Of a stretch of DNA of 64,000 bases, positions 14,498 through 59,815 are shown piece after piece; the first letter of the stretch is position 1, and the number at the start of each line of letters is the position of its first letter. The position numbers and the translations under genes were made by a program. Source of the DNA: Candidatus Magasanikiibacteriota bacterium (GTDB taxonomy: Bacteria; Patescibacteriota; Patescibacteriia; Magasanikbacterales; GWA2-37-8); contig JAHFHX010000004.1 of the NCBI GenBank assembly GCA_023246655.1, positions 2,762 to 66,761 of the forward strand, in the 5' to 3' direction. A model generated the notes under the pieces. The model was not told the DNA's origin. It searched no databases and saw nothing but the letters and a program-made list of their open reading frames with translations.

Positions 14498-16165
14498 CTA
14501 GATCTCATCAAACAACCCACCCTTACCAAGTAGTCCAACATTATGGCTATAATCTACCGGTACGTCGATGATGACCGGTCCTTTGATTTTGAAAGCTTGG
14601 GCGAGGGTAGGGGCAATGTCAGTAGGTTTTTCAGCACGTAGGCCGGTTGCGCCAAAGGCCTCGGCATATTTAACAATATCAGGATTCCCAAATTTGGTAC
14701 CGGAGATGCGACCATGAGAGACCATTTGCTGAATTTCTACAAGGTTGTAGCCGCCGTCACGCCAGACAATGTGGACCAGATTGAGTTTGCGTCGAACCGC
14801 TGTTTCAAGCTCCATCGCGCTCATGAGGAATGACCCGTCACCAGAACATGAGACAATTCGACGAGTCGGCTCAGCGAGACGCGCGGCAATAGCCCAGGGC
14901 AAGGCGACGCCCATGGTTTGAAAGCCCATGCTAAAGAGGAGTGTTTTTGGCTCAAAGGTAAAGTATTCCCGGGCGAGCCACACCTGGTGGGAGCCGACGT
15001 CAGAGATAACAATGTCGGTATCTTTGAGGGCACGGCGAATTTCCGCGACGAGACGGGCGGGATGAGTTTTTTGGCCGTCGTGGGCCAGGCCACGAGCCTG
15101 CTCTTTGAGGAGAATTTGTTGGGAAGCTCGCTCGCTTTTTGTTAAACTCCAGTGACTATTTTTAAGGTGAAATTGTAGGCGTTTTAAAATTGCAGCAATA
15201 TCGCCAATTAATTCGGCGGCCGGAGTATAGTTGCTGTCAACATCAGCTGGGAGACGGTCGATATGAATAATTTTGGCTTTAGTTGGCCACATGGTGGGAG
15301 CATATTCCACAACGTCGTAGCCAATGGTGAGCACAACATCCGCTTCGCGGAGGGCTACATCGCCGGGCTCTTCTACTGCTAAGCCAACGCGACCAAGGAA
15401 TTGCCCTACTAGCTCGCGGCCTACCACGCCGGCTGCCTCAAAGGTGCCTACGGCAGGGATGCCAGTTTTTTTGAGGAAGACTCGTACGGCGGTAGTTGAT
15501 CGATGATCAGCGGACCCGACGCCGAGGAAGACAACCGGACGCTTAGAATGTTCAAGGCATTTTGCAATCTCGGCCAATTTTTCATCATACACTTCCTCGT
15601 TTTCTTTAGTGTCAGGGAGTCGTACAAGTGGTTTTCCAGCATGTGTTCCGGTGAGAATGTCGGTTGGAAACGCTAGATGCGTGGCGCCAGCGCGTGGAGA
15701 AGCGGCTGTACGAAAGGCTTGGGCTACTGCTTCCGGAATTGCGGCGGTGTCTTCCAGTTCAACGCTCCACTTAGTAATAGGGGCAAATAGTGCGGCGGCG
15801 TCAATATTTTGGTGGCGATTTTGGAATCGATGGGCACGTGGAGTTTGCCCAGTGAGGGCTACCACCGGATCACGGTCAGCTGTGGCCGTCGCTACGCCAG
15901 TAACAAGATTGGTGGCACCCGGACCAACGGTGGCTATACAAACACCCGGTTTTCCGGTAAGCCGGCCCCAGGCCTGGGCCATAAATGCGGCATTTTGTTC
16001 GTGGCGACAGACCACAAATTCTGGCCCACGGTCATGGAGCACATCTAAAATTGGCATTAGTGACGCTCCGGGGACACCAAAAATATATTTAACATCGTGC
16101 GCTTCCAGGCAATCTACCAAGAGTGCGGCGCCCGATTTAGCGATGATTTTTTTGTTTTTTGGCAT
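14498..16165 (-). CDS. thiamine-pyrophosphate enzyme of the acetolactate synthase large-subunit family
   Basis: The protein is about 555 aa with a Pyr domain (GVPGASLMPILD), a central domain and a TPP-binding GDGSF motif. The start is chosen at MPKNKK, the ORF's second Met. Confidence 0.7.
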   Translation of the reverse strand: MPKNKKIIAKSGAALLVDCLEAHDVKYIFGVPGASLMPILDVLHDRGPEFVVCRHEQNAAFMAQAWGRLTGKPGVCIATVGPGATNLVTGVATATADRDPVVALTGQTPRAHRFQNRHQNIDAAALFAPITKWSVELEDTAAIPEAVAQAFRTAASPRAGATHLAFPTDILTGTHAGKPLVRLPDTKENEEVYDEKLAEIAKCLEHSKRPVVFLGVGSADHRSTTAVRVFLKKTGIPAVGTFEAAGVVGRELVGQFLGRVGLAVEEPGDVALREADVVLTIGYDVVEYAPTMWPTKAKIIHIDRLPADVDSNYTPAAELIGDIAAILKRLQFHLKNSHWSLTKSERASQQILLKEQARGLAHDGQKTHPARLVAEIRRALKDTDIVISDVGSHQVWLAREYFTFEPKTLLFSMGFQTMGVALPWAIAARLAEPTRRIVSCSGDGSFLMSAMELETAVRRKLNLVHIVWRDGGYNLVEIQQMVSHGRISGTKFGNPDIVKYAEAFGATGLRAEKPTDIAPTLAQAFKIKGPVIIDVPVDYSHNVGLLGKGGLFDEI

Positions 16166-16570: not shown

Positions 16571-16643
16571 TGGACCGATGGGGATTCGAACCCCAGACCC
16601 TCGCGTTGCAAACGCGATGCTCTACCAGCTGAGCTATCGGCCC
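16571..16643 (-). tRNA. tRNA-Ala (anticodon UGC); 3' CCA not encoded
   Basis: The reverse complement reads GGGCCGATAGCTCAGCTGGTAGAGCATCGCGTTTGCAACGCGAGGGTCTGGGGTTCGAATCCCCATCGGTCCA. It folds as a cloverleaf with the G3:U70 alanine identity pair and anticodon loop TTTGCAA. Confidence 0.9.
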
Positions 16644-17854: not shown

Positions 17855-19285
17855 TTAAGTAATTGAGTCTGTTGTTACATAATATTGATGTGAGGATATG
17901 ACGATGGCTGCCAGTATCCAGAATAACATCGCGAGATCATTTTTAAAATAGGGCACATCGATGAGGCCGTGCAGTATGATGATAGTAAGAGCTGTAATGA
18001 GACTGGCACTGAGAAGCTTGTCGGAGTGTTGATATATTTTATAACAAATAACAAATAACAAATAACAAATAACAACGAACGAGCACATTCCGACGAGACC
18101 GATTTCTGTCCAAAAGTTGAGGAAGATGTTGTGTGGGTAGATGAGGCGTTCCATTTTTTTAACATCATAGTGTGGTTTTTGAATTTTGCGAAAGAATTGG
18201 CGAATGCCGGTGCCAAAGAGGAAGTTTTTGGGTGATTGTGTTAAGTAATTCCACGAATAGGACCAGAGAGTTAAACGATTGGTGAGTGATTGAGATTTTT
18301 GTTGCGGGAAGTAGGAAGTAGGAAGTAGGAAGTAGGCGGCGATGAAAGCGATAGTTATGAGAGTCGCGATAAGCGCGATTTTTTTGTGACCAATGAGATA
18401 GGTAAAGAGAACTGTTCCGAGCACGAGGGCGGTGAAGGTGCCGAGGGATTTGGTAAGGAGGATGACGAGTGTGGAAATGAGAGATAAGGAGATAAGGAGA
18501 TAAGGAGATATTGTTTTGGGTGGAGAGGTGTGATTGTTTTTTCGGTAGTGCAAAATTAAAAATAAAATGAGAGGAACAATCGGCCCGAGATATAATCCAA
18601 CTGCGTTGGGAGAGAGGAAAAATGAGGTGATACGGTGGGTTTGGAGGGCAATCCAGTCCACATTGCCAATGTGCCAGCCGGTAAAGCGTTGGAGGATGCC
18701 GAAGATACTAATGCTGAGGGTGGAGAGGGCGAGGAACCAGATGAGGTTGGTTGGTGTTAGGGTGGTAGGTTGTAGGGCGGTAGCGCAGTAGGCTAGCATT
18801 CCCCGCTGGGGCGGGGTAGGGGTGGGTGAGGACGCCGGCGTGGCCGTTGGCGGAACCGCGAAGTGCCCCCCCCGCCCAAGCGGGGATTTGTCGTCGTCGA
18901 CTCGACCAACGAGCATCACAAATACCAGCATCGGTTCCAAAAAGTAGGCCCGCCATTGGCCAAGTGAGTAATACCACATGTCGGAAACGAAGATGCCGGC
19001 GATTGAAGCAAGAAAGAACAAAGAACAAAGAACAAAGAACAACTTGTTAATTGTTAATTGTTCTTTTATGTGTGACCAGTCCGCGCGGGCATGCTTGACG
19101 AGCCAGACTAAAAATAAAACTCCGAACATGAGTTCGAGCAACGTTGATGGGAGGGGGCCGACTTTGAATCGAATGAGGTATGTGGGGAGACCAATAATAA
19201 ACAGGCCAATGGCGAGGCGGAAATTTTTCCAGGCAAGGAGAGTAAAAGCAAGGCCGTAGAGAGTGAGGAGCAATAATGGTAACAC
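17855..19285 (-). CDS. O-antigen ligase / Wzy_C-family polytopic membrane protein, containing four microsatellite tracts and one GC-hairpin insertion
   Basis: The protein has about 11 TM helices and the Wzy_C/WaaL signature IYPHNIFLNFWTEIGLVG. Several repetitive peptide stretches (ICYLLFVICY, YFLLPTSYF, LLISLSLIS, LFFVLCSLFFLAS) are encoded by the heptamer and octamer repeats. Confidence 0.75.
   Translation of the reverse strand: MLPLLLLTLYGLAFTLLAWKNFRLAIGLFIIGLPTYLIRFKVGPLPSTLLELMFGVLFLVWLVKHARADWSHIKEQLTINKLFFVLCSLFFLASIAGIFVSDMWYYSLGQWRAYFLEPMLVFVMLVGRVDDDKSPLGRGGHFAVPPTATPASSPTPTPPQRGMLAYCATALQPTTLTPTNLIWFLALSTLSISIFGILQRFTGWHIGNVDWIALQTHRITSFFLSPNAVGLYLGPIVPLILFLILHYRKNNHTSPPKTISPYLLISLSLISTLVILLTKSLGTFTALVLGTVLFTYLIGHKKIALIATLITIAFIAAYFLLPTSYFPQQKSQSLTNRLTLWSYSWNYLTQSPKNFLFGTGIRQFFRKIQKPHYDVKKMERLIYPHNIFLNFWTEIGLVGMCSFVVICYLLFVICYKIYQHSDKLLSASLITALTIIILHGLIDVPYFKNDLAMLFWILAAIVISSHQYYVTTDSIT
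18043..18075. repeat. (AACAAAT)x4.7 microsatellite inside the CDS
   Basis: Four perfect heptamers plus a partial copy. Confidence 0.95.
18308..18335. repeat. (GAAGTAG)x4 microsatellite inside the CDS
   Basis: Four perfect heptamers. Confidence 0.95.
18481..18510. repeat. (GAGATAAG)x3.75 microsatellite inside the CDS
   Basis: Three perfect octamers plus 6 nt. Confidence 0.95.
18795..18900. repeat. GC-rich hairpin element (family B) read in-frame inside the O-antigen ligase gene
   Basis: The DNA CCCCGCTGGGGCGGGG...CCCCCCCGCCCAAGCGGGG encodes HFAVPPTATPASSPTPTPPQRG, in an otherwise AT-rich gene. Confidence 0.6.
19012..19062. repeat. (CAAAGAA)x3-4 followed by (TTGTTAA)x2.5, inside the CDS
   Basis: Adjacent perfect heptamer runs. 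Confidence 0.9.
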
Positions 19286-21002: not shown

Positions 21003-21038
21003 AAAAAACCATCCCGACTGAGTCCGGATGGTTTTTTG
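21003..21038. terminator. bidirectional terminator CCATCCCGACTGAGTCCGGATGG between convergent genes
   Basis: The same hairpin family as at 2034 and 34582, flanked by A-run and T-run. Confidence 0.65.
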
Positions 21039-21058
21039 TTATAAATAATTACGCTTTG

Positions 21059-25184: not shown

Positions 25185-26207
25185 TTAGAGATTAATTATT
25201 TCACCATATGTTTTTTGGTACCGTACGCAAAACGCTTCTTTTGTAAACGCATGTTCCTGTGTTCCATACGTCTCAATAGCATAACTCGCCGCGACGGAAC
25301 CGATTTGGGCGCAGGTTTTGAGAGGGAGGTTGTTTTCAAAACCCACCAGAAAGCCTGCGCGGAAAGCGTCGCCGGCGCCGGTGGGGTCGTCCACGGATTG
25401 GGGTGGGCAGGGGGCGACGTTGATTTCCTCGCCGTCTTGCGTAGTAATGATGGAACCTTTTTCACCAAGGGTCGTGATGAGAATGTTGGTTTCTTTTAAA
25501 ATATCCGCAGCGCTCCAACTGGTACGGTCTTGGAGGAGTTTCATTTCGTAGTCATTGCCAATAACAAAATGGCTTTTGCTTATCATACTCCGGAGTTCGA
25601 TGTCGGTGAAAGCAGTTATTTGTTGACCCGGGTCGAACATGGCCGGGATGCCGCGTTCATGGCATTCATGGAGATGCTTCATCATGACGGTTTTGTCGGT
25701 GGGGGAGATGATGGCGAGGTTTACTTTTTTGTCATCCCGAGTGAGGTTCGCACCGACGAGGGATCCCTGTCCGTCGATTGGTGATTGAGCCAGAGATTCC
25801 TCCTTCGTCGTCGGAATGACAGTTGGGAGGTGAGGCGTTTCTTCGAGCGGCCCATTGTAAAAGGCGGTTACCTGGTTGTCATCCATGTCGGTGGTGATGT
25901 AGGCGGAGGCGGAGAGTTTGGTTTTGTCTTGATAGATGTGGTCAGTTGCGATGTCGAATCTTTTAAAGTGATCGAGGTAGTCTTTCGCGTCTTTTCCAAC
26001 AGCAGAAACAATCATGGGGTTAGCGCCCAACATTTTTATCGTAAAGGCAATGTTGCCGGCGGTGCCGCCCCAACTGCGTTCTAATTTATCCACCACAAAA
26101 CAGACGTTAAGAATATGAATCTGTTCTGGCATGATGTGATTCTTAAAGCTGTCCGGAAAATTCATGATGTAATCGTAGGCGAGGGAGCCGGAGATGAGGA
26201 TGGACAT
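25185..26207 (-). CDS. PfkB-family carbohydrate/nucleoside kinase carrying an in-frame family-A repeat insertion
   Basis: The PfkB signature DPTGAGDAFRAGFL is present. The extra segment TVIPTTKEESLAQSPIDGQGSLVGANLTRDDKK is encoded by the repeat. Confidence 0.75.
   Translation of the reverse strand: MSILISGSLAYDYIMNFPDSFKNHIMPEQIHILNVCFVVDKLERSWGGTAGNIAFTIKMLGANPMIVSAVGKDAKDYLDHFKRFDIATDHIYQDKTKLSASAYITTDMDDNQVTAFYNGPLEETPHLPTVIPTTKEESLAQSPIDGQGSLVGANLTRDDKKVNLAIISPTDKTVMMKHLHECHERGIPAMFDPGQQITAFTDIELRSMISKSHFVIGNDYEMKLLQDRTSWSAADILKETNILITTLGEKGSIITTQDGEEINVAPCPPQSVDDPTGAGDAFRAGFLVGFENNLPLKTCAQIGSVAASYAIETYGTQEHAFTKEAFCVRYQKTYGEIINL
25731..25822. repeat. family-A nested-palindrome element (GTCATCCCGAG...GGAATGACAG)
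   Basis: It shares both termini and the inner GGGATCCCTGTC / GCCAGAGATTCC inverted repeat with the copies at 37842, 43470/43810, 54131 and 54502. Confidence 0.85.
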
Positions 26208-34563: not shown

Positions 34564-34581
34564 AAACGATTTTTAAAATAA

Positions 34582-34612
34582 AACATCCCGACTGAGTCGG
34601 GATGTTTTTATT
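34582..34612 (+). terminator. terminator hairpin ACATCCCGACTGAGTCGGGATGT followed by a T-run
   Basis: Third copy of the CATCCCGACTGAGTCGGGATG hairpin. Confidence 0.7.
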
Positions 34613-34839
34613 CTAGAAGATGCAAGTATTTTGTATGCTCTAGATGCAGGGTTTCATTGCGAGGAAACCCGACTCTTGGCCGGCGATAGTGTTATCGCCT
34701 GTTTCTTTTCAGCCGTCGTTTGGCCTGGCGACGGATATATTCCCGCGTGGCGGGACTATGGGAGGTGCCGAGATTCTCGGGAAGTACGGGCGGAATGGGT
34801 ACCGCCGTCGATTCCGAGCTCTCAGACTCGCGGTGGCGC

Positions 34840-37841: not shown

Positions 37842-37990
37842 ATACCGTTTTGTCATCCCGAGCAAGCCTTCCGCCAAAGGCGGACACAGCGCGAGGCCTG
37901 CCCGCCTCTGGCGGGAGGGATCTCTCTGTCCGTCGTTGGTTGATTGAGACAGAGATTCCTCACCCCTGCGACGGGGATTCGGAATGACAA
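37842..37990. repeat. family-A element, long intergenic variant (149 bp)
   Basis: It starts GTCATCCCGAGC, contains GGGATCTCTCTGTCCGTC...GAGACAGAGATTCCTC...CGACGGGGATTCGGAATGACAAG, and has an extra internal hairpin. Confidence 0.85.
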
Positions 37991-42240: not shown

Positions 42241-42609
42241 CTATTTCAATTTAATGAGCGCCGATTTTTTAGCACCATATTTATATTTCATCCATTTGGC
42301 GCTTTCCTCAAGCATCCACTCACCATATTTATTATCCGGGACTAACTGAAAATCAACCGACCATTTTTCGTTTTTTTTAGTTGGTTTAGTTTTGAGGAAT
42401 ATCACAACGTCAATATCTTGCGGTCGTATTTTTGCGGTGGTAAAACTACCGAGCATGTGTACCGAAGCAATGGGGAGAATTTTTTCTAGTTTTTTCATTA
42501 CCCGCTCAAAGTGTTTCCACATTTCTTTACGATATTTTGAGTTTAACAATTCTTTAGGAATGGTTGGCTTCATAATTTTAATTATTTTATTCATTCCCCT
42601 CCCCAACAA
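42241..42609 (-). CDS. minimal nucleotidyltransferase (Pol-beta superfamily)
   Basis: The GS...D.D signature is present (LGSFTTAKIRPQDIDVVIFL). Confidence 0.55.
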   Translation of the reverse strand: MLGRGMNKIIKIMKPTIPKELLNSKYRKEMWKHFERVMKKLEKILPIASVHMLGSFTTAKIRPQDIDVVIFLKTKPTKKNEKWSVDFQLVPDNKYGEWMLEESAKWMKYKYGAKKSALIKLK

Positions 42610-42646
42610 GGGGAGGGGCGCAGGGTGGGGTTATCGGGGAATTAAT

Positions 42647-43453
42647 TTACTCCAACGACAACAACCCCCGCTCCAATCGTTTTTTAAAATTCATTTTGAG
42701 AAATAATGTTGCGAAGACGAGATAGACAAAACTAATACTAACGCTCGTTGCTAGTTTCGTCCAGTCGAGTTGTCCAGTTTGGATGACGCCACGCATACCT
42801 TCAAATATGTAGGAAGTGGGGAGGAGGCGGGAGATGGCTTGTGCCCAATGGGGAAGAATTGAGACCGGGTAATAAATTGCGGAGAATGGCGCGAGGATGA
42901 CGCCGAGGGTCCAGGCAAAGGCTTGGAAGCTGGTGCCGTAGCGCAGAATGAGTCCGGCCACAAAAAAGCCAAGCCACCAGCCACACAGGAGGAGCGATAG
43001 GAGAAACGGAATGAGGTAGAATCCGTAGACAAAAATTTTTACCTGGTAGAGGAGAAAGGCAAAAGAGCTGGCGACAGCGGCCGTGATAGTTATTTTAATG
43101 AGGCCAAGGCACAGAAACCCGGCGATCCATTCGGAGAATCTAAGGGGCGAGCAGAAAAAGTTGAGCAGGCTTTTGTTCCAGAGCTCCTCGAGAGTGTCCA
43201 TAGGAATTTCCATTTGGACGCGGTAGAGAATTTCCCAAAAGATAATGCCGGTGACGGTAGCAAGCACAAATACCGGCGAGCCAAACACAGCGTGTGATTG
43301 TGCTGGGGCGATGGAGGTAAAAAACGTGCTGGTCATGCCCCAGAGCATGAGGTTAACCAGCGGAAATACAAACACCTCAGCCCAACGGTCCAGGTTTTTG
43401 CGCAGAAGATAGAGGAAGCGGAGGATGATAGCGTAGATTCTGGTAGGGTTCAT
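42647..43453 (-). CDS. ABC-2 type transporter permease
   Basis: A 268-aa protein with six TM helices, lying downstream of the ABC ATPase gene. Confidence 0.65.
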   Translation of the reverse strand: MNPTRIYAIILRFLYLLRKNLDRWAEVFVFPLVNLMLWGMTSTFFTSIAPAQSHAVFGSPVFVLATVTGIIFWEILYRVQMEIPMDTLEELWNKSLLNFFCSPLRFSEWIAGFLCLGLIKITITAAVASSFAFLLYQVKIFVYGFYLIPFLLSLLLCGWWLGFFVAGLILRYGTSFQAFAWTLGVILAPFSAIYYPVSILPHWAQAISRLLPTSYIFEGMRGVIQTGQLDWTKLATSVSISFVYLVFATLFLKMNFKKRLERGLLSLE

Positions 43454-43456
43454 ATT

Positions 43457-43804
43457 TTATTTTAGATTTGTCATCCCGAGCGAGCCTCGCGGCGACGAGG
43501 GATCCCTGTCCGTTATGTCCCAATACAAATCTTTCCATTTTGGGTTCATACTTTGAATTAATTTAATTTTTTTCTCTCGTCGCCAGGCTTTTATTTCTTT
43601 CTCACGATAGATGGCCTGTTTAATACCATTGTAATGTTCATAATAAACAGGTTTTTTGGTTTTATATTTTTTACTGAAACCACCACCTACCTCATCTTTG
43701 TGTTGTTCGACGCGTTCAATTAAATCATTGGTTACACCAACGTAGATCACATAACTAATACTCGCCATAATGTACGTGTAGAAATTGTAGTGTAATCGCG
43801 GCAT
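43457..43804 (-). CDS. GIY-YIG nuclease-domain protein (115 aa) nested in a family-A repeat
   Basis: The N-terminus YVIYVGVTNDLIERVEQH...YYEHY is the GIY-YIG fold. The last 15 codons (DRDPSSPRGSLGMTN) are encoded by the left arm of the repeat. Confidence 0.8.
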   Translation of the reverse strand: MPRLHYNFYTYIMASISYVIYVGVTNDLIERVEQHKDEVGGGFSKKYKTKKPVYYEHYNGIKQAIYREKEIKAWRREKKIKLIQSMNPKWKDLYWDITDRDPSSPRGSLGMTNLK

Positions 43805-43919
43805 AGCGGTTGATTGGACAGAGATTCCTCAGTCGCGCGAGTTTCTTCGGAATGACAGTTGGGTGGTCTTGATTGAGACAGAGATCCCTCACCCCTGCGA
43901 CGGGGATTCGGGATGACAA
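43457..43919 (-). mobile_element. candidate mobile cassette: family-A left arm, GIY-YIG gene, and two tandem family-A right arms
   Basis: The left arm GTCATCCCGAGCGAGCCTCGCGGCGACGAGGGATCCCTGTCCGTT lies at 43470-43514. Two right arms (TTGATTGGACAGAGATTCCTC...GGAATGACAG at 43810-43858 and TTGATTGAGACAGAGATCCCTC...GGGATGACAA at 43869-43919) flank the gene. The cassette sits between the ABC ATPase and permease genes. Confidence 0.6.
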
Positions 43920-44831
43920 TTACGGTTTAGTTTGTACTGTCTGCAAGAAATAATCTTCCAAACTCGGTTTCGCAATGCTAATTTCGGAATAGGCGATTCC
44001 AGTTTCGGCGAGGGATTGGAGAAATTGGGCAATAGATTTTTCGGAAACATCAACGGTGATGTATTTGCCGTCAGCGTGATGCGGGAGGTTACTTTGAGCG
44101 CAGTAGGAAAGTAGGCCGGTAGGATTGTAGGCGAGTAGGGTGATGTGGGCCACTTCGATTGAGCGCGCGAGGTTTTGGGGTGTGTCGTCGGCGATGAGCT
44201 TGCCGTGGTTGATGAAGATGACGCGATCGCAGATTTCTTCTACCTCACTCATATTATGGGAAGTGATAATGATGGAAACATTAAATTCTTGGCGTTGGGT
44301 TTCTAGAAATTCGCGGATATATTGAGCAACATCGGGGTCGAGTGAGGCGGTGGGTTCGTCGAGCAGTAAGACACGGGGGAAATTAAGCATGGCCTTGGCC
44401 AGGCCGACGCGGGTTTTTTGCCCGGCCGAGAGACGACCGAATTTTACGTTTAGTAATTCGGTGAGATTAAAAATATCGATAATTTTTTCCAAGCGTTTTT
44501 TGCGATCGGAAATTTTGTAGAGATAAGAAATGAACGTGAGATTTTCTTTGACCGTGAGAAGCTCCGGGAGACCAACGTAAGTGGAAGAAAAATTTACCTG
44601 CTCGAGAATTTCTTCGCGAGAGTTAAAAAAATTTTTACCAAAATAATTAATTTCACCACTGGTCGGTGTCAGCACTCCTAAAAGCATTTGGAGTGTTGTC
44701 GTCTTTCCGGCTCCGTTGGGTCCAAGCAAACCTAAAATTTCTCCTTCATTTAAACAGAAGGAGATGTTGTCGACGGCAACAAATCGGGCGGGAAATTTTT
44801 TTGTTAGGTTGGAGATGGAGAGGATAGGCAT
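43920..44831 (-). CDS. ABC transporter ATP-binding protein
   Basis: Walker A (GPNGAGKTT), the LSGGQK ABC signature, and Walker B (LLLDEP) are present. The start is set at MPILSISNLTKKF. Confidence 0.85.
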   Translation of the reverse strand: MPILSISNLTKKFPARFVAVDNISFCLNEGEILGLLGPNGAGKTTTLQMLLGVLTPTSGEINYFGKNFFNSREEILEQVNFSSTYVGLPELLTVKENLTFISYLYKISDRKKRLEKIIDIFNLTELLNVKFGRLSAGQKTRVGLAKAMLNFPRVLLLDEPTASLDPDVAQYIREFLETQRQEFNVSIIITSHNMSEVEEICDRVIFINHGKLIADDTPQNLARSIEVAHITLLAYNPTGLLSYCAQSNLPHHADGKYITVDVSEKSIAQFLQSLAETGIAYSEISIAKPSLEDYFLQTVQTKP

Positions 44832-47227: not shown

Positions 47228-47400
47228 GAGTTAGGATGGTAGGACAAGAGTCGTATTCCCCGCTTGAGCGGGGTGGTCGCCTCAAGGCGACCGAGGTGTG
47301 TGAGGCCGGTGAGCGGGCGATTCGTCAATGGATGCGATTTTATTGCCCCCGGCGGCTCACACCCCCCTACCCCCCCCCTCACAGGGGGGAGTTGAATATC
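47228..47400. repeat. family-B GC-rich hairpin cluster (CCCCGCTTGAGCGGGG, GCTCACACCCCCC, CCCCCCTCACAGGGGGG)
   Basis: The same motifs recur at 48517-48550, 48947-48990 and 59764-59815. Confidence 0.8.
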
Positions 47401-48512: not shown

Positions 48513-48926
48513 TTAATCCCCCCTCGAGGGGGGTAGTGGGGGTGTGAGCCCTTTGCGTGGCTCAATCCAATCGACAATTCGTTGGGTTACATTGTCAATA
48601 TCGCGACGCACCTCGTGTTCTTGAAATCGTAATACAATAAATCCTTGTTGTTCTAATTGTTGCTGTCGTTTTTTATCATATTCCATTTGAGCATCATGGC
48701 CAAAGCCATCGAGTTCAATTATAAGTTTTAATTCACGACAGTACAAGTCAACAATATAATTCAGTATTGTTGTTTGACGAATGAACTTGTAACCAAGTAA
48801 TTGGCGGCCTTTTAGTTTTTTCCACAATAATACTTCGCCGAGCGTAGAATTTTTACGTAAGTCTCGAGCTCGATTTTTAAGATTTGTTTTATATAAAGAG
48901 AACGTTCGGTTTGTTTTGATAACCAT
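48513..48926 (-). CDS. DUF559 (Vsr-like very-short-patch-repair endonuclease fold) protein
   Basis: The C-terminal sequence GFIVLRFQEHEV and the motifs LLGYKFIRQ and VDLYC match DUF559. Confidence 0.7.
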   Translation of the reverse strand: MVIKTNRTFSLYKTNLKNRARDLRKNSTLGEVLLWKKLKGRQLLGYKFIRQTTILNYIVDLYCRELKLIIELDGFGHDAQMEYDKKRQQQLEQQGFIVLRFQEHEVRRDIDNVTQRIVDWIEPRKGLTPPLPPSRGD

Positions 48927-48990
48927 ATTAGTGACGACTCTCGGAAGCTCACACCCCCCGTGAACCCCCCTCAAGGGGGGATTTGAGCTC
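48517..48990. mobile_element. DUF559 gene bracketed by roughly 35-bp inverted family-B repeats
   Basis: The left repeat is TCCCCCCTCGAGGGGGGTAGTGGGGGTGTGAGCC (48517-48550). The right repeat, GCTCACACCCCCCGTGAACCCCCCTCAAGGGGGGATTTGAGCTC (48947-48990), is its inverted counterpart. Confidence 0.55.
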
Positions 48991-53807: not shown

Positions 53808-55139
53808 ATGATGGAAAATGTCCTAAAAATTCTCATCCTCCACGACTATTTTCTCTACAAAGGCGGCGGGGAGCGGTTGGTGATTAGTCTTGCCAAAAAT
53901 TTGGGGGCGGATGTGGCGACGGCGTTTATTGCCAAGGATGCTTTTGATCCGCGTGAGCACGGGATTAGGACGATTGAATTATATAAAGAGAAGGCGTGGT
54001 CGCGTGTGCCCGGGTTTCGATATTTGCAGGTGCAGTCGTCGTTTTTGTTTAAGACGGGGTTTGTAAAGAATTATGATGTAGTGATTTATAGTGGCGATTG
54101 TTTGACGGCAGCACTTCGAACTGGCGTATTGTCATCCCGAGCGAGGCTCGCGCCGACGAGGGATCTCTGTCCGTCGGTGAGTGAGCCAGAGATTCTTCGC
54201 TCTGCTCAGAATGACAGTAAAAAATCAGAAAGACGGCCAGTGAACATCGCTTACATGCACACGCCGCCTCGGCATTTGTATGATTTGTATGACGAGAGAT
54301 TGCGCTCATATCCCTGGTGGAAGAAAATTATTTTTGTGCCGTTTGTCTTGTTTAACCGGTGGAGATTTTTAGCCTTGGCACGAATGATGGATAGGATTGT
54401 GACGAATTCGAAAAATACTCAAGCGCGGATAAAAAAGTATCTGGGACTCGATTCGATAGTAGTGTATCCGCCGTGTGACACTCTTCCGTTCAAAAATCTC
54501 CGTCATTCCGAGCGAGGCCTCGCGGCCGACGAGGAATCTCTGTCCGTTTCGTCAACGAGTGAGACAGAGATTCCTCCTGCGGTCGGGATGACAAGTGTTG
54601 GCGATTATTTTTTCTCCTGGGCGCGATTGTATGATGTGAAACGGGTTCACCTCATCGCGGAGGCATTTGCCAAGATGCCAGACAAAAAAGTAGTCATTGC
54701 ATCGCAGGGCCCAGAGTTTGAGCGGATAAAAAAAATTGTTGAGGGGCACAGCAATATTACGCTTCTAGGTTGGATTGATGACCAACAATTGCTGGAGTAT
54801 TTGGGCAAATCTTTAGCCACGATTTACATTCCCATGGCTGAGGATTTTGGGATGACGGCGGTGGAATCCATGCAAGCGGGGAAGCCGGTGATTGGGGTGG
54901 CGGAGGGAGGACTTTTAGAAATCATTGAAGATAATAAAAATGGGTTGATGTTGAAACCGGATTTTACGGTTGACGATTTACGATTGAAGATTTTAGAAAT
55001 GACACCAGAGCGGGTGCGGGTGATGGAAGCAGCGTGTTATGAAACGGCGAAGAAGTTTAGTGAAGCGGCATTTGTGGAGGGGATGAGGGAGGTGATTGAG
55101 AAATACCAAATACCAAATACCAAATACCAAAGCTGTTGA
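53808..55139 (+). CDS. GT4-family glycosyltransferase with two in-frame family-A repeat insertions
   Basis: The C-terminal GT4 EX7E region (GMTAVESMQAGKPVIGVAEGGLLEII) is present. The inserted segments read VLSSRARLAPTRDLCPSVSEPEILRSAQNDS and RHSERGLAADEESLSVSSTSETEIPPAVGMTS. Confidence 0.75.
   Translation: MMENVLKILILHDYFLYKGGGERLVISLAKNLGADVATAFIAKDAFDPREHGIRTIELYKEKAWSRVPGFRYLQVQSSFLFKTGFVKNYDVVIYSGDCLTAALRTGVLSSRARLAPTRDLCPSVSEPEILRSAQNDSKKSERRPVNIAYMHTPPRHLYDLYDERLRSYPWWKKIIFVPFVLFNRWRFLALARMMDRIVTNSKNTQARIKKYLGLDSIVVYPPCDTLPFKNLRHSERGLAADEESLSVSSTSETEIPPAVGMTSVGDYFFSWARLYDVKRVHLIAEAFAKMPDKKVVIASQGPEFERIKKIVEGHSNITLLGWIDDQQLLEYLGKSLATIYIPMAEDFGMTAVESMQAGKPVIGVAEGGLLEIIEDNKNGLMLKPDFTVDDLRLKILEMTPERVRVMEAACYETAKKFSEAAFVEGMREVIEKYQIPNTKYQSC
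54131..54217. repeat. family-A element (87 bp) translated in-frame within the glycosyltransferase gene
   Basis: GTCATCCCGAGCGAGGCTCGCGCCGACGAGGGATCTCTGTCCGTC...GCCAGAGATTCTTCGCTCTGCTCAGAATGACAG. Confidence 0.85.
54502..54594. repeat. family-A element (93 bp) translated in-frame within the same gene, in a different frame relative to the repeat
   Basis: GTCATTCCGAGCGAGGCCTCGCGGCCGACGAGGAATCTCTGTCCGTT...GAGACAGAGATTCCTCCTGCGGTCGGGATGACAAG. Confidence 0.85.
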
Positions 55140-57022: not shown

Positions 57023-57832
57023 TTACCGTGAGGTCAAATAGTAATTCTGTTCTTTTTTAGAAAATTTTTCAATGGCATATCGTAGCATGGTGCGGGGCAT
57101 TGTTTGATGATGGTGGTTAAGGAATTTTTTTAGCGTCGGCGGCGATTTTTTTCCCACTTCGCGTAGCATCCAGCCGCAGGCTTTCTGAATCAGATCGTGT
57201 TTGTCAGTGAGGAGGAGTTTGGAAATTTTGAGCGTTTCGTCAAAATGATTCGCGCGGATGAAAGCAAAGGTAGCAACGATGGCAATGCGACGTTCCCAGA
57301 GGTTGGTGGAGCGGGCGAGGGTGACGAGGACAGCCAACCGCGGCCGAACCCCCCTCTCTATCTCCCCCCTATAAGGGGGGAGAGGGCCATCAATGCCCTC
57401 CCCTACAAGGGGAGGGACGGAGGGCGGGGTTTTCGTCTCGCGCATTTGGTTGAGTAAGTACTCGCCGACAATCTGCGGGGCGGAGGTGTCGACTAAATCC
57501 CAATTGTTAATTCGTTTGGTGTTTTTGAGGTAGAAGTTGTAAATTTTTTTCTTCTGTTTATTATCCCCGATTTGAAATTGACGTACCAGGATGATAAGGC
57601 CAGTGAAACGCTCCTCATGAACTTTTGATTTGAGTAGTTTTTGTATGTCGGCGAGTGAAAGATCGTAAAATTTTTTGGCGATGGTTCGTTGCTTCGGTAC
57701 GGTGAGCCCAAGAAATAGGTCGCCATGGCCGTATTCACCCGGTGCGGTTTTAAAAAAGCCAGCATAGATTTTGGCTTTGGTGGGGTTGGCATGGGAGCGA
57801 AGAATTTTTTTGAGTTCGGTGAGATAATACAT
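57023..57832 (-). CDS. AlkD-like HEAT-repeat DNA alkylation repair glycosylase carrying a family-B insertion
   Basis: The sequence MYYLTELKKILRSHANPTKAKIYAGFFKT...NNWDLVD matches AlkD. The segment RETKTPPSVPPLVGEGIDGPLPPYRGEIERGVRPRL is encoded by tandem GC hairpins. Confidence 0.7.
   Translation of the reverse strand: MYYLTELKKILRSHANPTKAKIYAGFFKTAPGEYGHGDLFLGLTVPKQRTIAKKFYDLSLADIQKLLKSKVHEERFTGLIILVRQFQIGDNKQKKKIYNFYLKNTKRINNWDLVDTSAPQIVGEYLLNQMRETKTPPSVPPLVGEGIDGPLPPYRGEIERGVRPRLAVLVTLARSTNLWERRIAIVATFAFIRANHFDETLKISKLLLTDKHDLIQKACGWMLREVGKKSPPTLKKFLNHHHQTMPRTMLRYAIEKFSKKEQNYYLTSR
57345..57435. repeat. family-B tandem GC hairpins (CCCCCCTCTCTATCTCCCCCCTATAAGGGGGGAGAGGG...CCCTCCCCTACAAGGGGAGGG)
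   Basis: A GC island inside an AT-rich gene. Confidence 0.8.
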
Positions 57833-59732: not shown

Positions 59733-59763
59733 ATTATTTTTGAGAGGGGGCGGTGGTGAAAAT

Positions 59764-59815
59764 CCCCGCTTGAGCGGGGTGGCCCGCGTCGCAGCGGGAC
59801 CGGGGGTGTGTGAGC
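59764..59815. repeat. family-B element (CCCCGCTTGAGCGGGG...GGGGGTGTGTGAGCG)
   Basis: The same two sub-motifs as at 47228-47400, in opposite orientation. Confidence 0.75.

Follow-up and report, generated by a model that had tools for sequence, protein, structure and literature searches.

The closest described counterparts of the locus analysed here are the Ssn nucleases, a family of single-domain GIY-YIG proteins (CDD cd10448; Chenal et al., Nat Commun 2025, PMC11893778). Each ssn gene lies between hairpin repeats, which are named NTS in Neisseria (CGTCATTCCCGCGMAVGCGGGAATCYRG) and more generally SRM, and the association between gene and repeat has been published at genome-wide scale (PMC11893778). 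Binding by four purified Ssn homologs is restricted to the single-stranded DNA (ssDNA) form of the repeat, cleavage occurs a few nucleotides to its 5′ side, and mutagenesis indicates that the 5′ GTCAT tag, the ATYCC/GGRAT stem and the C that follows matter most (PMC11893778). In N. meningitidis, where SsnA is about 94 amino acids long and 2% of NTS lie within genes, knockout and complementation change transformation by NTS-bearing DNA approximately fivefold, with SsnA lowering its frequency (PMC11893778). The authors of that study likened NTS-ssnA-NTS to an insertion sequence, as a hypothesis only with regard to insertion behaviour, and also to RAYT/REP. The preliminary description of the present DNA had drawn the same RAYT/REP parallel, which we find apt, and had not recognised the pairing of a GIY-YIG gene with repeats as a described system; that pairing is already described as Ssn with NTS/SRM (2025, PMC11893778).

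The window, by which we mean the whole 64-kb stretch of DNA that was analysed, contains a GIY-YIG gene lying within a repeat element, as had been proposed: an ORF of 115 amino acids is bracketed by one repeat arm downstream and by two upstream. The features of this locus are as follows, with arm positions taken from an nhmmer profile.

42647–43453, minus strand: ABC-2 permease gene, with its start at 43453
43457–43804, minus strand: GIY-YIG nuclease gene, an Ssn-family candidate encoding a single-domain protein of 115 amino acids
43468–43511, plus strand: downstream arm, reading GTCAT..., inverted relative to the gene and encoding the protein tail TDRDPSSPRGSLGMTNLK
43816–43858, minus strand: proximal upstream arm, GTCATTCCGAAG...GAGGAATCTCTGTC in gene orientation, ending 13 nt before the ATG
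43874–43919, minus strand: distal upstream arm, adjoining the stop codon of the ABC ATPase gene
43920–44831, minus strand: ABC transporter ATPase gene, whose stop codon (43920) directly adjoins the cassette

The sole Pfam match of the protein is GIY-YIG (PF01541; residues 8–80, E = 6.9e-10). It comprises the catalytic domain alone, with no second domain or DNA-binding module among the Pfam matches, and neither a PDB sequence search nor NCBIfam returned a match. Because its N-terminus (MPRLHYNFYTYIMAS) agrees with the conserved YxVYIMAS beginning of its homologs, the upstream ATG at 43804 is taken as the true start. Every residue invariant in the family is found in the protein, and 47 residues separate the YIG tyrosine from the catalytic glutamate (Y21 and E68), the same spacing as between the residues Y17 and E64 that were mutated in N. 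meningitidis SsnA (PMC11893778). Its nearest homologs come from Candidatus Magasanikbacteria, with 81% identity. A homolog from Burkholderiales shares 54% identity (E = 2e-31), and the gene encoding it carries cgtcattcccgcgcaggcgggaatcc at its flank, which matches the published NTS consensus; literal NTS sequences adjoin several of the sampled homologs that are 50–54% identical to the window protein. A search seeded with the Burkholderiales homolog found at least 8000 relatives, with no Neisseria protein among the 120 matches listed.

The repeat arms are readily distinguished from background in the window. Two motifs named in the preliminary description proved to be genuine repeats: GTCATCCCGAGCGAG, with up to three mismatches allowed, occurs 7 times where 0.98 matches are expected, a number reached in 0 of 100 shuffles, and GACAGAGATYCCTCA occurs 11 times where 1.32 are expected. 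A census with an nhmmer profile made from the arms and run on the 64-kb window found 11 arms at five loci and nothing else; a weak match at 14963 was excluded from the family by the profile. Short copies do exist elsewhere in the window, as had been stated, and the family occupies five loci in all, not six or more. In addition to the single gene-bearing locus, there are four inverted doublets that carry no gene.

25729–25822: doublet in frame in a PfkB-family kinase ORF (25185–26207, minus strand); arms 25729–25772 and 25787–25822
37850–37990: intergenic doublet with an enlarged left-arm interior; arms 37850–37877 with 37913–37925 (long left arm) and 37946–37990
54129–54217: doublet in frame in a GT4 glycosyltransferase gene, in the loop after CLxAxxR; arms 54129–54172 and 54183–54217
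54502–54594: doublet in frame in the same GT4 glycosyltransferase gene, in the loop after PFKNL; arms 54502–54545 and 54561–54594

The arm consensus is (T)TGTCATYCCGA, a variable interior of 17–50 nt, and GAGGRATCYCTGTC. Its plan can be read as a long-interior variant of the Ssn repeat: GTC, then ATCCC and GGGAT enclosing a variable mini-hairpin, then C. In a doublet, two inverted arms surround a spacer of 13–18 nt with the sequence CGTCG[AT]TTGGT(T)GATTGA. Whole doublets are predicted to fold as long hairpins beyond shuffled controls (z = −1.9 to −5.0), and single arms show no such excess over shuffled sequence (z = −0.7 to +0.9). The repeats have no Rfam match at the gathering threshold for the whole window or at E ≤ 1 for the two glycosyltransferase doublets. 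A purely structural rule (GTC, then a 7-nt stem whose complement follows within 70 nt) was discarded, as it gave 32 matches in the window, compared with 31 for simulated sequence, and the real arms were not among them.

Chance placement of a common repeat around a small gene with no connection to it would be compatible with the window alone, which has a single gene-bearing locus. Homologs were sampled by a scan with one genome per species that found at least 586 relatives, from which 80 loci in many phyla were kept (L001–L080). For each locus, the 160 nt upstream and the 160 nt downstream of the gene were scored for an inverted repeat against matched controls from the same loci. The flanking inverted repeat exceeded the 95th percentile of the controls in 65 of 77 scorable loci and the 99th percentile in 58. 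Arm sequences vary between genomes (for example gtcattcccgcgaaagcgggaatcc, gtcatcctgagcgaagcgaaggatc, and gtcattccggggcgcg...cccggaatcc), and a GTCAT-like motif (GTC[AG][TC]) is present in the arms at 51 of the 77 loci. For 14 of 48 genes, the gene's own arm has a further copy within the same 20-kb locus, compared with 2 of 48 when the search is made in another genome. The link between gene and arms is real, because inverted repeats flank most of the loci and a gene's own arms recur in the same genome.

The arms also enter the protein sequence. The preliminary description had assigned the last 15 codons and the stop of the window gene to the left arm; the arm at 43468–43511 supplies approximately the last 17 codons (TDRDPSSPRGSLGMTNLK), and the stop comes after it. 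In many database homologs from other phyla, C-terminal peptides such as DPSxxLGMT or DPSTPLRSGRDD are likewise translated repeat arm, which also argues against chance, as does the genome-wide association already in print (PMC11893778). Other GIY-YIG homologs in the genome without flanking arms, or an identical distribution of copies in genomes without any GIY-YIG gene, had been named beforehand as observations that would make the association coincidental, and neither is borne out. With the flank test and the nhmmer arm census taken together, chance juxtaposition is ruled out, its probability being negligible, and the association between the GIY-YIG gene and its repeat arms is not coincidental.

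The published SRM pattern, HGTCWYN(0-2)YYVSBRHN(0-5)WNVSBRGN(0-2)RNCYNB, has no match in the window and matches only 14 of the 80 homolog loci. The window arms keep GTCAT, the ATCCC/GGGAT stem and the 3′ C, with an interior much longer than the pattern permits (17–50 nt against a loop of at most 5 nt), and it is because arm interiors are longer that the pattern misses the window and most related loci. It thus under-detects the repeats of non-proteobacterial members of the family. From these sequence comparisons, we read the mismatch as a limit of the search pattern and not as the mark of a different system. In other respects the likeness to Ssn/SRM is close: a single-domain GIY-YIG protein of about 95–115 amino acids is encoded by a gene flanked by inverted hairpin repeats that open with GTCAT and close with ...GGAATC/GGGATC, further copies are dispersed in the genome, the repeat sequence co-varies with the gene, and the distribution spans many phyla. 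Unlike the published repeats, those of the window are arranged in inverted doublets, three of the four gene-less ones lie in genes as against 2% of NTS in N. meningitidis, and the host is a patescibacterium, a group absent from the main text of PMC11893778. As far as that main text shows, the doublets, the long-interior arms, the Patescibacteria hosts and the frequent in-frame location in genes are not described there. Taken with the explanation as a whole, the window ORF probably encodes a Patescibacteria member of the Ssn family, with Candidatus Magasanikbacteria the probable host, and the locus would carry the Ssn/SRM system into candidate-phyla bacteria.

The cassette occupies the gap between the ATPase and permease genes of an ABC transporter operon (43453–43920), where the preliminary description had placed it, and the ATPase, nuclease and permease genes are all on the minus strand. 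To establish the ancestral arrangement, orthologous ABC-2 operons were gathered by a metagenome scan with the permease; 40 of the 51 loci obtained include the upstream gene. In all 40, the ATPase gene ends either within the permease gene or no more than 20 nt from its start, mostly with a 4-nt ATGA overlap, and a GIY-YIG gene is absent from between the two in every one. The empty sites that had been proposed as a check are thus present. Because the genes abut in all of these orthologs, the 466-nt gap in the window represents the insertion of a 452-nt arm-gene-arm unit, and the cassette broke a translationally coupled junction. Both flanking genes are still intact. The distal upstream arm is 74% complementary to the downstream arm over 43 nt.

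Target-site duplications had been proposed as a further sign of insertion, and none is visible: not one of the five loci has a direct repeat at its boundaries. The arm-gene-arm layout is also seen on L001. Homologs 80–81% identical to the window protein (on L081 and L082) have the same layout in unrelated contexts, between AP_endonuc_2 and DUF1761 or between ZnuA and ZnuC (znuA and the zinc ABC ATPase gene). The G+C content of the nuclease gene core (43512–43804) is 34%, compared with 42.5% for the whole cassette and 46.8% for the window. The arm-gene-arm cassette is an insertion, and, as part of the same overall explanation, it is likely to be a unit resembling an insertion sequence that entered at the coupled ATPase/permease junction. 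Together, the empty sites in 40 of 40 operons, the near-identical genes in unrelated contexts and the foreign base composition give sequence-level support for insertion behaviour.

The gene-less doublets point in the same direction. Three of the four lie within coding genes and are read in frame, where they add approximately 25–36 residues to loops. In the kinase, the doublet constitutes a loop insertion of about 25 amino acids that is absent from homologs, nearly all of the 150 best of which match in two stretches around the extra loop. Orthologs of the GT4 glycosyltransferase (window 53808–55139) range from 361 to 447 amino acids; some have both loops empty, and others have repeat-derived insertions at the same two loops. 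Two orthologs from other Patescibacteria (L135:1416–2696 and L136:1123–2466) carry related GTCAT...ATGAC doublets in the loop after PF[KR]NL (tGTCATTCCGAC...GGAATCTC / GAGATCCCTCG...CTCGGGATGACa), and a 79%-identical ortholog (L134:1501–2595) has an empty site at this position. Compared with their homologs, the kinase and glycosyltransferase doublets are to be read as insertions for which empty alleles exist.

In L135 a second, C/G-rich palindrome is nested within the doublet spacer, and in L136 the other glycosyltransferase loop is occupied by a different palindrome (cctctcctctgcagaggagagg). At both of these loops, members of several repeat families have repeatedly landed or been retained. 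A doublet has only one or two open frames among its six, and the genic copies always lie in an open one. A length rule under which a constant element size and a 2-nt duplication would keep insertions in frame was ruled out, since the GTCAT..ATGAC spans measure 90, 85 and 91 nt.

With its gene removed, the cassette matches the gene-less doublets. Parts of the doublet spacer are still present beside the gene, CGT to one side and GGTTGATTG to the other, and the gene therefore occupies the middle of such a spacer. This precise position, together with a gene core whose A+T content far exceeds that of arms and host, is what would be expected if a palindromic repeat had been there first and a homing-type GIY-YIG gene had entered its spacer, with the doublets spreading independently of the nuclease. 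GIY-YIG homing endonucleases such as I-TevI and the Seg proteins are an established class; the window protein shares their catalytic domain, and its gene, like theirs, has the character of an insertion placed between conserved genes of the host. Homing endonucleases, however, have extra DNA-binding domains and double-stranded target genes, and are encoded in introns or inteins or by free-standing genes next to the target, whereas the window protein is a bare domain without homing-type modules, encoded within a dispersed repeat to which it is tied. With 65 of 77 loci showing the arm-gene-arm layout with matched, genome-specific arms, such invasions would have to have occurred repeatedly, each time into a matching repeat. 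Moreover, the characterised members cut ssDNA beside the repeat, not double-stranded DNA within a target gene (PMC11893778). We regard this homing invasion as the main rival to the explanation preferred here, and as improbable.

A different reading is that nuclease and repeats form a domesticated system serving the cell, by cutting incoming ssDNA during transformation or by modulating recombination, with the repeats themselves immobile. The roughly fivefold shift in transformation by NTS-bearing DNA in N. meningitidis (PMC11893778) is in keeping with such a role, and the window gene is intact and co-oriented with the host operon. Against immobility, the cassette interrupts a junction that is tightly coupled in all 40 orthologous operons, homologs with 80% identity are found in different contexts, and doublets reside in coding genes for which relatives have empty alleles; these are marks of selfish spread. 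We consider the domesticated system possible but doubtful as a full account. A role for the host and selfish spread are compatible, and the cutting of incoming ssDNA, as in Neisseria, may coexist with mobility.

The explanation that we judge likely as a whole combines an Ssn-type nuclease, cognate hairpin arms, a cassette resembling an insertion sequence, doublets resembling REPINs, and three steps. By analogy with the characterised enzymes, the nuclease would bind its cognate hairpin repeat as ssDNA only and would nick a few nucleotides 5′ of the GTCAT end. In the first step, the arms would be recognised in DNA that has become single-stranded in the course of replication, repair or uptake. 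Nicking at the outer GTCAT boundaries could then initiate host-mediated copying or insertion of the cassette and of the doublets. Finally, only tolerated insertions would survive, namely those that are intergenic, or in frame and free of stops in surface loops. That the short copies are mobilised by the nuclease is something that we infer, as the literature does. A hydrolytic GIY-YIG nuclease alone cannot join DNA or perform strand transfer, and because a doublet has its two arms on opposite strands, excision from a single strand as in IS200/IS605 cannot apply as such. The Ssn cassettes and doublets described here provide the clearest sequence evidence that we could assemble that these elements may behave as mobile DNA.

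As in the REP/REPIN-RAYT system, a single-copy gene lies between two inverted hairpin repeats, gene-less inverted doublets are dispersed, there is no target-site duplication, and recognition of an ssDNA hairpin has been proposed. RAYTs are HUH Y1 enzymes resembling those of IS200/IS605, whereas the window enzyme is a hydrolytic GIY-YIG nuclease that lacks a covalent intermediate for strand transfer; the nuclease is the only gene carried between the arms, and an HUH Y1 (IS200/IS605 TnpA-like) transposase is absent from the Pfam matches. REPs are extragenic, unlike the window doublets, which are also found within genes. With classical MITEs such as Correia/NEMIS, the doublets share small size, terminal inverted repeats, many copies and an occasional in-frame position in genes, but the window loci have no target-site duplication and no parent insertion sequence with a DDE transposase. 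The term MITE-like, used in the preliminary description, is loose, given the lack of such duplications and a partner that is not a DDE transposase. Literature searches on GIY-YIG with MITE or palindromic elements, COG2827, RAYT or the Candidate Phyla Radiation found nothing relevant.

The doublets also resemble the Rickettsia palindromic elements (RPE), which are palindromes of about 90–150 bp found in frame in unrelated genes and encoding surface-loop peptides (PMC10969869); the resemblance is functional only. Literature searches found no paper on a gene mobilising RPE or on a GIY-YIG protein linked to them. Among the peptides encoded by RPE are some that finish in ...LLAMT, the expected counterpart of a GTCATTGCGAGG end; this is a lead and not a result. 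The in-frame doublets in the kinase and glycosyltransferase tie the nuclease family to the old puzzle of palindromes in coding genes. We raise as a tentative idea, less probable than the explanation above, that Ssn nucleases and hairpin doublets may form a class of autonomous and non-autonomous mobile elements that uses an ssDNA nuclease in place of a transposase and, in Patescibacteria, seeds in-frame palindromes in protein-coding genes. If true, this would supply the enzyme, so far missing, that mobilises RPE-like 'protein-coding palindromes', a question open since 2000.

Several other elements in the window were noted. A tRNA gene (16571–16643, minus strand) is the sole Rfam match in the window at the gathering threshold. 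A perfect hairpin with A and T runs at its flanks (AAAAACCATCCCGACTGAGTCGGGATGGTTTTT) is present in three copies, at 2032–2068, 21004–21040 and 34578–34614, and looks like a shared bidirectional intrinsic terminator. Other short C/G-rich palindromic families (CCCCTCCCC..GGGGAGGGG, and TCCCCGCTTGAGCGGGG) are unrelated to the GTCAT arms. Their copies lie at the following positions, with one copy just downstream of the ABC-2 permease gene.

42591–42636 and 57390–57435: C/G-rich palindrome
47257–47276, 59763–59782, 18800–18819 and 48517–48536: C/G-rich palindrome
47350–47388 and 48942–48980: C/G-rich palindrome
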